NCBI GenBank assembly: GCA_000934665.2
Contig: KZ538305.1
Coordinates: forward strand, 62,001-84,929
From: Catajapyx aquilonaris
Lineage: Eukaryota
DNA length: 22,929 nt
Direction of reading: 5' to 3'
The notes under the pieces were generated by a model. That model did no database searches and was not told the origin of the DNA. It saw only the letters and a list, made by a program, of their open reading frames with translations. Of the stretch, positions 5,555 to 22,929 are shown piece after piece. The position numbers and the translations under genes were made by a program. Every line of letters starts with the position of its first letter. Position 1 is the first letter of the stretch.

Positions 5555-6160
5555 AAAGGAAGAATATGTGTTCCTATGCCTTGCAGATGAGCAATCTCAG
5601 GGATAAAAAATTTCATTTCGCGTTCCTGCATCAGTTATTGCCGCAAGTGAGTCAATATCTGAATTTTGGCGAGCATGCGTGAAACAAACTTTTAGGTTGT
5701 GTTTCCATACTATTGTATAGACAGACACTCTCAGGGAGTGAAGTTGCACCTGAATGATTTGATTTTGAAATCGAATTTTGAAGTGCATTGGATGGTTGTG
5801 CTTATAAAAATACACGTGCAGTGTGGGAATGTCACAAAAAATGTTTGCGGATCTGCAACTTCTGAATTTTAGAGCCTGCGGTGTACTGACCACTCGTGGT
5901 TCGGAGGGATTCGTGATGTGGTACTCAGAAGGCAATAAAAAATGACCACAATGAGTCTGGTATAGAACCACAAGCCTCAGTTAATATCCAAGGAAGAATG
6001 AGTGGCATCAAAATTCTCACGAGCTAAATATTTTCATAATTATTTGCATTCAGAAGACTTCACAATAAAGTGAAAGAGGCAGTGAATCGAAAAATTGTGG
6101 CAGTTACCTTGCCGACTATAAATTTGACGCCGAATCGTACGTCACAGTATGAGCGAAAGT

Positions 6161-6162
<2 letters not shown>

Positions 6163-6222
<60 letters not shown>

Positions 6223-6235
6223 TATTATTATTATT
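6163..6235. repeat. Compound microsatellite (AAT)20 followed by (TAT)4
   Basis: Read directly: 20 AAT units at 6163-6222, then TAT x4 at 6223-6234 plus T. This explains the poly-N/poly-Y ORF at 6070-6270. Confidence 0.98.
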
Positions 6236-6724
6236 GTCAATGCAGTTGGAATGCATTCATTTCTATATGATTATGAGTAAAAATATTGTATGGGTTTTGG
6301 TAGGTAATCCAATAGTGATGCGGCAAAATAATTTTGATCGTAATTATGACGTATGTAACTGTAGTGCAAAACTAATCATACGATGGTTACAAATTTTGTA
6401 GTTAATTAGTGTCTACTGTCAAAATTGTAACAATTTCATAATCGAGAAAAGGCAGTCTGTGTGACTAAATTAGTTCATAACTAGATATTATAATTACGTT
6501 TTAAAACTTGTACGTCCCATTTTATACTTTTTGTCCAATTTTGTTAAGGAATAGTCTGTTAATGACATACAATTGTGTTATACTGTGTATAGGTACAAAA
6601 CTGTACAGTGCATGTTGGGTTTGAGGCAGTAGGAATTGTGTTCTGGAGAGAGTGAGTGTCGAAACGTTGAAGGCTGAAAAAATGATGGACACGTTTTGAT
6701 AACATTACATGAGAAGATGATCAT

Positions 6725-6728: not shown

Positions 6729-7018
6729 GGGTCATTCCACTTCAATTCAAATTGGTGGTACGACCAACTCCGATTTCTTTGAAATTTTTCATACATGTAT
6801 ACATGGGGGACACATTGCAATATCCGAAGTTTGAGCTCCACATGAGGATATGGCTCTGAGATATGGCCGATTCAAAAATGGCGATTTTTGAGTTGCACAT
6901 TACTGCAATTATTATTTTTTCTCCGGAAGTAACACTCTCCACCAAATCAGTTTATATATTTTCTTGGAGACATTGAACCACAGAATCCAGGGAAATAATT
7001 CACATACATATATCTACA
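6729..7018 (+). repeat. Left terminal inverted repeat of the element (~290 bp)
   Basis: Aligns to the reverse complement of 7578-7874, with a 53-bp perfect block (6858-6910 vs 7688-7740) and further blocks such as ACATGGGGGACACATTGCAA, TTTCTCCGGAAGTAACACTCTCCACC and TTGAACCACAGAATCCAG. Inner boundary is approximate. Confidence 0.92.
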
Positions 7019-7577: not shown

Positions 7578-7874
7578 TGTATATGTAAGTTATATGAATT
7601 ATTTTTCTGGATTCTGTGGTTCAATACCTCCCAAGATAATATATAAATTGATTAGGTGGAGAGTGTTACTTCCGGAGAAAAAAAGAGAATTGCAGTAATG
7701 TGCAACTCAAAAATCGCCATTTTTGAATCGGCCATATCTCGGAGCCATATTGTCCTACGGAGCTCAAACTTCGGATTTTGCAATGTGTCCCCCATGTAGA
7801 CCTGTATAATAAATTTCAAGAAAATCGGAGTTGGTCGAGCCACCACATTTCCTGAATTAAAGGTGGAATGACCC
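7578..7874 (-). repeat. Right terminal inverted repeat of the element (~297 bp)
   Basis: Reverse complement of 6729-7018 with scattered substitutions and small indels. Inner boundary is approximate. Confidence 0.92.
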
Positions 7875-10800: not shown

Positions 10801-12923
10801 TAATTGAGGTCATATGCTGTCTAACAAGATGAAGAAGATTTTTACTGAAAGGGAGTTTGCTATTGATGGATGATTGCAACTTGTGCCCAGCACTCCGATA
10901 ATACGGGGGCCTGGTTGCGTAGTAACACTTTAATTGGCCCATTTATTGCGATGAAATGTGCGGGGGCCAGACTCTGTGGTAAATCAATTTTTCTGCAGTG
11001 AATCCAGCAGGATACTTACTGTACCTAGTAGCCGGTAATGGTGTTTGGGTTTTTGCATTGCAACGACCGCGTTGGCTTGCCCTATGGCGCAGAATGGCCC
11101 ACCCAAATTTTGCAAAATATGAAACTCTTTGTCATTGCACAGCGCACTATAGCTCGCCGACTCCTGCTTTGCTGGGTGCTGTAATTGGGCTTTATTGTTA
11201 TTTATTAACCCTCTTATGTCAGGAGTTTCCAGTAAGCAGTGTCGCTCGTAAGCGCAATGAAAAACCTGTGCGTTAATTAGACCTCTGCGTGTTTTTACTG
11301 TGGGCTTCAACAATATAATCGAGCTGGTTCCATTTTTCATATCACTTTTTCTCAAGTGAAAATCAGAACATATATTACGCTCACAACGTTCAATGAGGCC
11401 ATTATTGTTACGCAATAAATCAGGTTATTTTTTACTGGGAATAAAATATGAGTACCGTAATATACCTCACGGGCTTGATGTACCCCGCAGTTGATGTGTA
11501 TACTCTGTGAATAGCGTTCATTTATAATGGTTCAATGCAGCTTACGTGGTTCTCTGCCAGACAAGCAGAGCATTGAATATGGAGGAAAATATTATGATTT
11601 GCGGACCCCTGTAATTGCTGCGCAGCTCATAGTTCCATGCAGTTATATTGATGTCGGCGGACACACTCTGATTTGATATTTCTCCTGCCTCTCCAGTAAG
11701 GCCTGCTTCTAAAAAATGTAACAATTGGCCGAAGCCTTCTGCATTGTTGATGACAACTGCTGTGCGGCTGTGGCCACACCGGGACCGGGCCTAATTTTTG
11801 GCGTCAGTTTTTCACAGCATCGCGACAGGCCCGGCGCTGACATTTTGGCGCAGGTTTGGCTGCAACTGGACTCCAACGATTTTTTTCTTCTTCTCTTTTT
11901 GATCCTAAACCCGCCCTTTTCCCCAGGAAGCCGGGCATTCGTTTTGGTCAGCTGCGGATCACTTTAGTGTGCCTTTTGGTGCATGCTTGCCTGCTGGACA
12001 AACGCCAATGGCTCTGCCGCATTGTTATCGATATTGATTCCCCCGGAACTGGCAGCATCAGTTTTGGAGCCTGGTACTGCTTGCGGAGGAGGCCTGTTAT
12101 GTGCAGGAGTATTTTTGGGTGGAAGGTGGTGCAGCACCATCGGAAGAAGTGGTCCACCATATGAGAGGATTGTGGCTGAAATATTTCGGTTTTTATTCCG
12201 ACTCTGGAGCTGGAGTGTACCAAAGGGAATGCGGTACCAATGTGGTGAATAATAAAAGACCTTTGCCGAACTGGCTCATGAATGACATGTGCAGGCACAG
12301 CCCGAAATAATAATTGCGTAATGAAAACATGCGCAGGCTTCCAGCACAATACAAGTCACTTATTTGAAGCTTAATGAATTCTGTTCGTGATCAGGCGTCT
12401 GTTTTCTCCATTGTACCGCTCGAAGGAAGCATTATGGAAATTACTCTGGTAGGAGTCACATTCAATCTCTTGCCTACTTCGCTTTCTCTTGGGCTCCCGA
12501 GACTTTCAGTTGCTTGTAGAGAATGGAGCCTCTCGTCCTGATAACAGCCGTTGTTTCGTTTCAAAGAGCATTTTAAAAGAAAAAAAAGGAATTGAAGTCG
12601 GAAAAGAAAGAAAGTAATGGCCGAGTGTTTTACACCTGACAGAACCCATTATTTTCCTCCGAGGCACGTGTGATCAGACCTGGTTTTAAACCTTATCAGC
12701 ATGTATGGCGTGTGTGAGTCAGGTGGTTTTTGCCCAACCTCACCAACCTACCTATTCCGAATTTTATCTCCCGCAAAGTCCATTTTCCGGCTGGGGGATG
12801 CTGTCGCGAATCCAATTTTGGGAAGCCATCGCCTTCACCTGTCCTTTCCAAACCGTATCGTGGATCCTCTGGGAGCCTTGACAAGGTGAAAGGTGCCGAG
12901 GACTGCAGACAGAACTAGTCGTC

Positions 12924-14415: not shown

Positions 14416-14428
14416 GGNGGGGGGGGGG
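14416..14428. other. Poly-G run containing an ambiguous base (N at 14418); possible assembly join or uncertainty
   Basis: GGNGGGGGGGGGG, the only N in the window. Confidence 0.85.
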
Positions 14429-20400: not shown

Positions 20401-22204
20401 TCTAAGCAGTTCATGCCGTTTCATGCACAGAGGCGCCTTTGTGGGTGGGCCGTTCAATTTGAGAGAGATATGCCGCCGGGGTATTAGGGACCTACCAAAG
20501 GGCCAGCAGACTCCTTTTTTGTCCTAAAAGAAGTGGAATAAACAACCGAAAGTAAAGGAGATTCCAGGCTCGTAGAACCACAAATGAAGAGCTAGAAGGT
20601 TTGTAATTTTGGTTGCTGCTTTTGTTTGCTTTATAGTCCAGAGTAATGTTGCAGGCTGTAGTTGAACCTCGGACATGCATGCTCGCACTTAGCCGCCTGT
20701 GTGCGAATATTAGGCTTATAATAGATGCGCATTATGTCGAGCAAATTATATTGCTGGCAGAATAGTGAGTCCGCGGTTATATGAACGTGGGCGCCATGTT
20801 TATTGCATAACTGATTGGCTCACATCATTGCAACCTATTGTGAGCGCTAATTACTTAATTTATGACGCAGTACTCACGTGCTTATTTCGGCTTCCAATTA
20901 CGATGACAATGTGTGTGCAGCTGCCGTGCACTATGCTCATGTCAAGACACATCACGAGTGTGATTAAATCGAAATACCCAATAAACTACAAATTTTTTGA
21001 TGCCATCCATTGAAACCGCAAAATTTTTACTGCACTAACTGAAGAATCTTCGTGGCTCAGACTGAAAATACACACCATACGTATGGAATTTCAGGAGCTG
21101 GCTTTAACTCCATTTTGAGAAAACATGTGCCCAAAATGGCGCCTGAGAAAATCCCCAGGAACTTCCCAAAATCCGATCCTCTCACGACCTTCTCCCCTTC
21201 CTCGCAGGACGGTAACCCTATGGCAATTCTATCAACCCTCTTTCAATGGTGGCCGGAAAACCATTATTTTGTTTGTAGGTTCCTTGGAGAGGCTGAGAGA
21301 TTGCTTCCGGAATCGGAGTCATCTTCTCTCGCGCTGTTGGAGGAACGAAAATTGTGTCGCTGGAAAAAAGAACTATAGGCTTATAACCATATCCGATTTC
21401 CAGCAGTTAACGTTGTACTGCGTAAATAATTGGAACCGAGCGACTGAAGCCCGGTTTTTTAAAAGGCGACATCAGGTTTCAGCGGATGTGGGGCATCCGA
21501 GAGTGATTTTTACCTTATCCTCACCCAAGTTGTGAGGCGGAATAAATTGTTCAGCAATTCCCGGAAGAATGGCCCCTTTTGCCTCTCGAGATTCATAGGT
21601 TTGAGGCGATGGCCTAGAAAGAGGGGGTAGCAAGAGAGAAGGAAACGCATTCTTCTTCAGCCCTTTTCCTATATACACCAACCACCATCCCCATTATCCT
21701 CCGGATGATAGATCAGCCCCATTTCGAAGCCTTCTAAAACTTTGTGGGTTTTCAATTAGAAACAGTCAATCCGAGCACAAAAAATGTAAAAAAAAGAGGG
21801 TAGAGATTCCATCCCCAAAAGGGAGTTAAAACAGATCCATTTTATATCCGAGGTTAGCAAAAGTTTGTGGGGGAGCTGGCAGTTGGGTGATTAATTTCCC
21901 CTGCAATGACCAGATATGGAAAACGAAAAGTCAAACTCGGTCTGTGGGTCTGCTGTGTTGAAGGCGAGATTTTGTACGAGGTTGTCCACTAAGCCTCAAT
22001 TTCCCTCGAAGCGCAAGGGAGAAAGCTTCTGGTATCCAAAATGGAGCTCGCGTGGGCTCAGTTGTAATATAATGAAGATTACTCTCTACTGATACGGAGT
22101 CTGCATTCTCTGGTCTCCTCTGGGACTCTGTGTATGTGAACAGGGACTAGATGAGATGGAAACCTCTTGCCATATTGTTGGAAACGCTTAGCGTGAGTGA
22201 TTTG

Positions 22205-22240
22205 CTAACTTGATATCTCATTTTCTCTTTGCAGGTAAGT
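22205..22240 (+). other. Candidate recursive splice site (ratchet point): 3' splice site directly abutting a 5' splice site
   Basis: CTAAC branch motif (22205-22209, branch A 22208, 26 nt before the acceptor G), tract TCTCATTTTCTCTTTG, CAG (22232-22234), then consensus donor GTAAGT (22235-22240). No other AG lies between branch point and acceptor. Confidence 0.7.
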
Positions 22241-22285
22241 GAATCTGGGATCTCGCAGAATGTGGTGGCTATACTCTTGCTAAAG
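22235..22285 (+). other. Candidate 51-nt cryptic RS-exon / microexon
   Basis: Bounded by the acceptor at 22234 and a strong donor AAG|GTAAGA (GT at 22286-22287). Open only in phase 0 (VSESGISQNVVAILLLK); the other two frames hit TAA or TGA at once. Confidence 0.5.
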
Positions 22286-22929
22286 GTAAGATGTAGAGAC
22301 TATTGAGTGCAAAGCAGCGAACAGAAATTATAGCCGGGGTTGAAACGGAAAAAAAGAAGAAAATGTCGTTATCCGAATTCAATAAATACAGTGGAGGAAA
22401 TGGAGGAGGCATCAAAATGTGAAGATACAGTGAATTTAATGGATTATGCATCTCGGAATTGATCTCGTTTCCAATACCTTTTGCCTTTTTCTGGTTACTA
22501 CGTCAGTGTAATGATATTGATTCCGTTCTGAACATCTTGGCTCTCACTTTCTAACTTTCTCCGACTTCTTTTTTCATCCGAGTTTCCTTTTCGAGTCCGA
22601 AACTTGATCCGCTTTTGAGCAGACTCGAGCTTCAGTGACTCTCTATTCTTCGTCAACTCTAGAAATGCAGATATCTCCACCTTTGCTTGCACATAAATTT
22701 GTATAGGGTACTACTTCACCGATGCAGTTTGATGCCCGATAAATGTGTCATCGCGCACTGTAAATCCCGACAGGAAAGAGGGGGAAAAAGTCGCTTCTGC
22801 ACTGAATCTCGACGCTTATACACTTTTTTTTATCTTGTAAAGTTCACTCCATATGCACTTTGTCTCTAAGTTTCTGGGGCGACGTCGGTGGACTGAATTC
22901 GAAGGATTTGCTTTCCGTTCTCTTTGGGG

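Follow-up and report, generated by a model that had tools for sequence, protein, structure and literature searches.

A candidate recursive splice site followed by a second donor at +51 in non-coding eukaryotic DNA

In a stretch of DNA of 22,929 nucleotides, referred to below as the window, a CAG acceptor directly abuts a GTAAGT donor with no bases between them (22232–22240, + strand), and a further donor is located 51 nt downstream. The observation is sound. Judged by its sequence anatomy the site is probably a splicing element and goes beyond a nice-looking motif; this upgrade follows from the presence of the predicted downstream donor, which played no part in the choice of the site. The best explanation, which we put forward tentatively, is that the site would serve as a skipped intronic ratchet point of the Drosophila kind. 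Three other readings are weighed against it, namely a chance look-alike, an expressed 51-nt cassette exon and the start of a small gene, and the remaining probability falls to readings beyond these four.

Results

The elements of the candidate site are listed in Table 1. An earlier note on this DNA had described a branch point, a pyrimidine tract, CAG and GTAAGT; all of them are located on the + strand exactly where the note had placed them and agree with it base for base. The CTAAC and its second A were read directly from the sequence. The nine bases CAG/GTAAGT (the slash marks the splice junction) are the sole 9/9 match to MAGGTRAGT on both strands of the window. At the intronic consensus positions the regenerated GTAAGT matches 6/6 and the downstream GTAAGA 5/6, the exonic half of the regenerated site being set by the upstream exon. 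The 51-nt unit enclosed by the acceptor and the downstream donor corresponds to 17 codons. One of its frames is open, and the remaining two are closed by TAA or TGA within GTAAGTGA.

The predicted RNA structure around the site shows nothing special (z = −0.12; 87 of 200 shuffles fold as well). On the − strand the site reads ACTTACCTG, which is the sequence of the 5′ end of U1 snRNA. A U1 pseudogene was rejected, since no U1 match was found.

Table 1. Features of the candidate site in the window, and eukaryote-like metagenome loci that carry an identical 20-base core
Feature	Sequence	Position	Strand	Remarks
Putative branch-point consensus CTAAC	window	22205–22209	+	candidate branch A (second A) at 22208, −27 from the 3′ splice site
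AG-free pyrimidine tract	window	22210–22231	+	14/17 pyrimidines at −20 to −4; TT at −5/−6 (22229–22230)
CAG, candidate ratchet-point 3′ splice site (acceptor)	window	22232–22234	+	one of the 6/1160 YAG sites that pass the literature-derived acceptor criteria
GTAAGT, putative 5′ splice site regenerated after the upstream exon joins at 22235	window	22235–22240	+	
Putative recursive (RS) exon, 51 nt	window	22235–22285	+	frame 1 open: VSESGISQNVVAILLLK
Downstream donor AAG/GTAAGA	window	22286–22291	+	8/9 to MAGGTRAGT; at +51; would bound the RS-exon and rival the regenerated GTAAGT
Upstream donor-like GTGAGT (AGC/GTGAGT)	window	22193–22198	+	7/9; 42 nt 5′ of the acceptor; not part of the ratchet-point model
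Identical 20-base core	L001	774–793		
Identical 20-base core	L002	1303–1322		
Identical 20-base core	L003	1501–1520	−	
Identical 20-base core	L006	1501–1520		
Identical 20-base core	L007	1501–1520		
Identical 20-base core	L009	535–554		

The nine-base motif taken by itself is weak evidence. YAGGTAAGT has one match on both strands of the window, 0.21 being expected, and at least one match is present in 17 of 100 dinucleotide shuffles; the 9-mer alone is therefore not significant. The ease with which the 9-mer arises in shuffles speaks for an unused look-alike, that is, a chance pseudo-exon in intergenic DNA, in antisense DNA or in DNA that the spliceosome ignores. It also speaks for this reading that the site was chosen by a search for this very motif, that pseudo-exon pairs are plentiful at relaxed thresholds (26 on the + strand and 21 on the − strand), and that the G over C skew of the window runs counter to what is typical of sense strands in flies. 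In a genome of 1 Gb, about 40 chance sites that combine the motif with an acceptor would be expected, counted on both strands, and about 3–12 that have the donor too.

The acceptor and the downstream donor are far less common than the motif. The acceptor criteria follow the fly literature and require at least 13 pyrimidines among the 17 positions −20 to −4, TT at −5/−6, no AG at −25 to −3, and a YTNAY branch A at −36 to −21. The six YAG sites that pass, among 1160 on the two strands, are split four to two between the + and the − strand. With stricter cut-offs, which were set post hoc by the candidate itself, one of 1161 YAG sites passes. In an ad hoc additive score the candidate ranks first among the 156 AG/GT junctions of the window (80 on the + strand, 76 on the − strand), six points clear, and this position as a clear outlier argues against a look-alike. 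The earlier claim that the site is the best + strand acceptor in 23 kb likewise holds under such rule-based scores, which are not species-trained. No second ratchet-like site is present on either strand of the 22.9 kb; this does not contradict the ratchet-point reading, yet it lends it no support. As for the donor, an 8/9 match within +25 to +100 is found for 1.9% (+ strand) to 2.3% (− strand) of the window positions and a 7/9 match for 14–15%. Of the six acceptors that pass, the candidate alone has a donor of 7/9 or better within 100 nt.

The chance expectation for the composite was estimated in two ways. An order-3 Markov model of the window was used to simulate 346,000,519 bases, and both strands were scanned. 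The simulated 346 Mb contained 5745 YAGGTRAGT, of which 14 passed the acceptor criteria; four of these also had a donor of at least 7/9, and one had a donor of at least 8/9. Per window, on both strands, chance yields 9.3e-4 sites with motif and acceptor, 2.7e-4 when a donor of at least 7/9 is added and 6.6e-5 when the donor is at least 8/9, figures that are to be read as orders of magnitude only, because the simulated counts are tiny (1–4 events) and the thresholds are partly post hoc. The simulation is matched by a factorised estimate based on frequencies in the window itself (six acceptors × 4.6e-4 for GTRAGT per position × 0.02–0.14 for the donor), GTRAGT being found at 21 of 45,858 positions on both strands. 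The composite of motif, acceptor and independently predicted downstream donor is rare and disfavours chance. A look-alike is further disfavoured by the enrichment of ratchet motifs on the sense strand of long introns, which the passages cited from PMC2773006 describe for five of the five invertebrates examined. We consider the look-alike unlikely, and place it first among the alternatives. In practice, the 9-mer alone is uninformative as a filter, and the 9-mer together with TT at −5/−6 and a donor less than 100 nt downstream is far more specific.

Three donor-like motifs follow one another at 22193, 22235 and 22286. A tandem duplication was rejected as their source: TRF found nothing across 22193–22291, and aligning the 42-nt unit with the 51-nt unit gave scores within the range of shuffles (0.28–0.35 of the nulls reach the observed score). 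Since the three motifs are not tandem copies, the downstream donor is an independent feature.

The first of these motifs allows the region to be read as the beginning of a small gene whose introns are very short. Such a gene would begin with the ATG at 22151 and have a first exon to 22192 (MRWKPLAILLETLS), a 42-nt intron at 22193–22234 (GTGAGT...CTAAC...CAG) and the 51-nt exon in phase. The ATG starts a 14-codon frame that ends exactly at the GTGAGT, which is a 7/9 donor (Table 1) of a rare type, given the low count of GTRAGT in the window, and the phase of this frame agrees with that of the open frame in the 51-nt unit. However, this arrangement was noticed post hoc, and many other coincidences of its kind would have been possible. 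No compact gene structure is present in the surrounding 23 kb, the 640 nt that remain beyond the 22286 donor contain no convincing acceptor, and the peptides are too short for searching. An intron of 42 nt is, moreover, shorter than usual for most animals. We regard the start of a small gene as very improbable.

The window is non-coding eukaryotic DNA. It contains one N (position 14418) and has a G+C content of 43.5%. Its longest stop-to-stop ORF encodes 153 aa. Among all 333 N-free stop-to-stop ORFs of at least 40 aa (93 + 90 + 150), none matched a Pfam family at or above the cut-off; the best match, to Trefoil (E 0.005, 17.1 bits, cut-off 21), was dismissed as about what is expected from 333 queries. 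A codon-position composition test of the 226 ORFs of at least 50 aa found no codon periodicity outside simple repeats, and flagged only a TAA microsatellite and a simple repeat at 1381–1537. The latter is of the CT/AG type and contains ORFs with strong three-base periodicity on both strands, which are false positives of the test. The former, a perfect (TAA)20 at 6162–6222, runs into its own complement of TTA-type repeats, so that 6157–6247 forms an AT-rich near-palindrome; in the kilobase that holds it, G+C drops to 0.32.

The most stop-poor stretch of the window is located at 11841–12355. It comprises five overlapping ORFs of 90–135 aa in three + frames and two − frames. The stretch showed no Pfam family, codon periodicity or real homologue. 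Its most protein-like frame, 12038–12307 (+), was compared with 1.84 billion representatives. The sole hit was a bacterial-looking repeat protein of 2015 aa, in which about ten copies of a weak 30-residue match scored at most 26.6 bits each, and this hit was read as spurious.

Upstream of the candidate site, 22.2 kb contain no detectable coding exon. The earlier description of the DNA as exon-free is borne out by the Pfam, codon-position and homologue searches, with room left for non-coding exons and lineage-specific genes.

No Rfam family reached its gathering score in the window, and no tRNAs were found in it. A permissive local Rfam scan gave a 19-bit match, which was discarded as chance against a gathering score of 50. 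A long inverted repeat is present at 6753–7006 and 7591–7845. Its arms of 215 nt are 90% complementary, an adjoining 41 nt are 88% complementary, and the spacer measures about 585–660 nt. Its arrangement is that of a foldback or MITE-like mobile element, and the ORFs that overlap it contain no Pfam family.

Composition does not decide which strand is transcribed. On the + strand T exceeds A (6689 versus 6265; positive in 10 of 12 2-kb bins) and G exceeds C (5228 versus 4746; 11 of 12 bins). According to the passages cited from PMC5786239, T exceeds A on the coding strand generally, and C exceeds G there in invertebrates, whereas G exceeds C in vertebrates. Under the fly pattern the two skews of the window disagree, and the strand signal is therefore ambiguous. 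GTRAGT occurs 15 times on the + strand and 6 times on the − strand, where composition alone predicts about 12 and 9, and AATAAA occurs 20 and 19 times. The observed/expected ratio of CpG, 0.80, argues against a typical CpG-depleted vertebrate. The earlier attribution of the DNA to a non-model invertebrate is a guess, on which the CpG ratio says no more than this.

Matches to the site were sought in metagenomes. A 28-mer across the site has no metagenome match. The 20-mer core, consisting of the pyrimidine tract, CAG and GTAAGT, is present at nine metagenome loci; in blastn only the 20–24-nt motif is shared, and none of the nine loci has flanks homologous to the window. Six of them are eukaryote-like (Table 1) and show no relation to one another beyond the motif. 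A 7/9 or better donor is located at +25 to +100 in four of these six (background in those loci 0.154, binomial p 0.0065), and a donor of at least 8/9 in two of them (background 0.042, p 0.023). This is a hint, with n = 6, that in other eukaryotes, too, the motif tends to stand at the start of a short exon-like unit, and the six loci may be ratchet-type sites in other uncharacterised eukaryotes. The remaining loci, L004, L005 and L008, represent one bacterial-type coding family, with ORFs of at least 549 aa that contain the 20-mer; two are near-identical contigs and the third is a relative with about 68% identity. The core string thus also occurs in ordinary coding DNA.

Discussion

The ratchet-point reading is built on the properties of such sites in flies. 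TT at −5/−6 is found in 196 of 197 fly ratchet points, compared with 43.76% of all fly introns; recursive branch points are located mostly at −36 to −21, with a peak at −30; the host introns are 11–133 kb long, and the segments removed per recursive step average 18 kb (Duff et al., 10.1101/006163). Fly ratchet points are described as being recognised via a cryptic RS-exon of about 50 nt that is generally out of frame or carries stops (passages cited from Joseph & Lai 2021, PMC8605326, and Pai et al. 2018, PMC6110457). Most fly RS sites have an additional 5′ splice site less than 100 nt downstream, and the RS-exon is skipped when the regenerated donor outcompetes the RS-exon donor, as stated in the cited part of Blazquez 2018 (PMC6224609). 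The acceptor/donor core of fly ratchet points is strongly conserved and the exon body poorly, whereas expressed RS-exons of the Ubx type are described, in the text consulted, as conserved in the body including wobble positions.

The earlier note had interpreted the site as a recursive splice site, which is supported in part. Its sequence anatomy does fit fly ratchet points, including a donor less than 100 nt downstream. What does not fit is the frame: the 51 nt are a multiple of 3 and contain an open frame, whereas the cryptic RS-exons of flies are "generally out of frame", a property that is not absolute. The same note had seen the mechanism in the zero exonic bases between acceptor and donor. 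This view is out of date, ratchet points now being held to act via a short cryptic exon (here 22235–22285).

We propose that the site would work as follows. During transcription of a long + strand intron, the spliceosome would define a short exon bounded by the acceptor at 22234/22235 and the donor at 22286. The acceptor would be recognised via the branch A at 22208 and a U2AF-friendly tract with TT at −5/−6. The upstream exon would then be joined to G22235, and the first part of the intron would leave as a lariat. The junction would recreate a 5′ splice site, .../GTAAGT, which with its 6/6 intronic matches is predicted to equal or beat the downstream GTAAGA. This regenerated site would drive the next step, in which the 51 nt and the remaining intron would be removed with no trace in the mRNA. 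The skipping of the 51 nt is predicted under the published rule of donor competition, because by its intronic positions the regenerated GTAAGT would equal or exceed the downstream GTAAGA in strength.

The same anatomy of acceptor and donor would be expected of an expressed or alternative cassette exon of 51 nt (22235–22285) that starts with a 5′ splice site, of the type of Ubx mI/mII or of the "annotated RS-exons" of deuterostomes. Such an exon would be spliced in, and the regenerated GTAAGT and the downstream GTAAGA would then decide whether it is retained in the mRNA. The frame of the unit speaks for this possibility; by our estimate, the in-frame 51 nt favour an expressed exon roughly 3 to 1. 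Ubx m1 and m2 are likewise 51 nt long and begin with GTAAGA, and according to the cited part of PMC6224609, deuterostomes from sea urchin to human commonly have annotated RS-exons. The two donors are near in strength, the downstream one matching 8/9, which makes inclusion plausible. On the other hand, the regenerated one would be the stronger of the two by its intronic positions, which predicts skipping, and the encoded peptide of 17 residues lacks any recognisable feature and is of insufficient length for a search. By our estimate, moreover, an open frame over 17 codons with a length divisible by 3 arises by chance in about 15% of cases. In flies, more than 500 skipped intronic ratchet points are set against fewer than 50 expressed RS-exons in the source as cited. 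The weight given to the two readings was derived from this fly ratio and lowered on account of the in-frame 51 nt and of the lineage. An expressed cassette exon is, in our judgement, also unlikely, and stands second among the alternatives.

A more far-reaching version can be formulated, in which the site would be a working recursive element in an animal lineage without prior RNA-shown recursive splicing and would carry a regulated 51-nt micro-exon similar to Ubx mI/mII, its inclusion being decided by competition between GTAAGT and GTAAGA after the first step. Judged from the sequence, we hold this version to be somewhat less probable still than a cassette exon as such.

If the skipped ratchet point that we favour is indeed used, it would be a clean and testable one outside the two well-studied systems, flies and mammals. 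Its visible cryptic-exon architecture could help to tell how general exon-defined recursive splicing is in animals that have long introns. The gain would be incremental, as a single site is concerned, the mechanism is known, and such sites have already been predicted computationally for other invertebrates. The passages cited from PMC2773006 give a 27.5-fold enrichment of ratchet motifs on the sense strand of long introns in fly and an enrichment of "several times" in mosquito, bee, beetle and sea urchin, and a ratchet site in locust has been proposed with support from a U2AF65 pull-down. The earlier expectation that the site would extend the known range of recursive splicing was overstated, the enrichment in mosquito, bee, beetle and sea urchin having been reported in 2009 and the locust site having been proposed. 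In a non-exhaustive literature search, no paper was found with RNA evidence for ratchet points in non-insect invertebrates.

Among the known systems, the intronic ratchet points of Drosophila share most with the candidate. In both, acceptor and donor abut at AG/GT with GTAAGT, the pyrimidine tract is strong and TT stands at −5/−6. The branch A near −30 has its counterpart in the candidate A at −27, the further donor about 50 nt downstream in the one at +51, and by its intronic positions the regenerated donor of the candidate would likewise equal or exceed the downstream one in strength. The DNA upstream appears free of exons over more than 20 kb, as in flies. The candidate differs from Drosophila in that its 51-nt unit is in frame. 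With Ubx mI/mII it shares a short, frame-preserving exon, here a putative one, of 51 nt (as in Ubx m1/m2) that starts with a 5′ splice site; the Ubx exons start with GTAAGA, whereas the candidate starts with the stronger GTAAGT. Vertebrate RS-exons (Sibley 2015, as given in a citing paper; Blazquez 2018, PMC6224609, as cited) resemble the mechanism proposed here in that exon definition comes first, after which the regenerated and the downstream 5′ splice sites compete. Unlike the skipped exon proposed for the candidate, the RS-exons of deuterostomes are mostly annotated and are kept in the mRNA via repression by the exon junction complex, according to the same part of PMC6224609. Intronic pseudo-exons or decoy exons, finally, also pair a good acceptor with a good donor, spaced as in exons, in non-coding DNA. 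As a rule they have no consensus donor at their start, whereas the candidate has one, which makes it rarer by a factor of about 1000 than ordinary pairs of this kind in the window.
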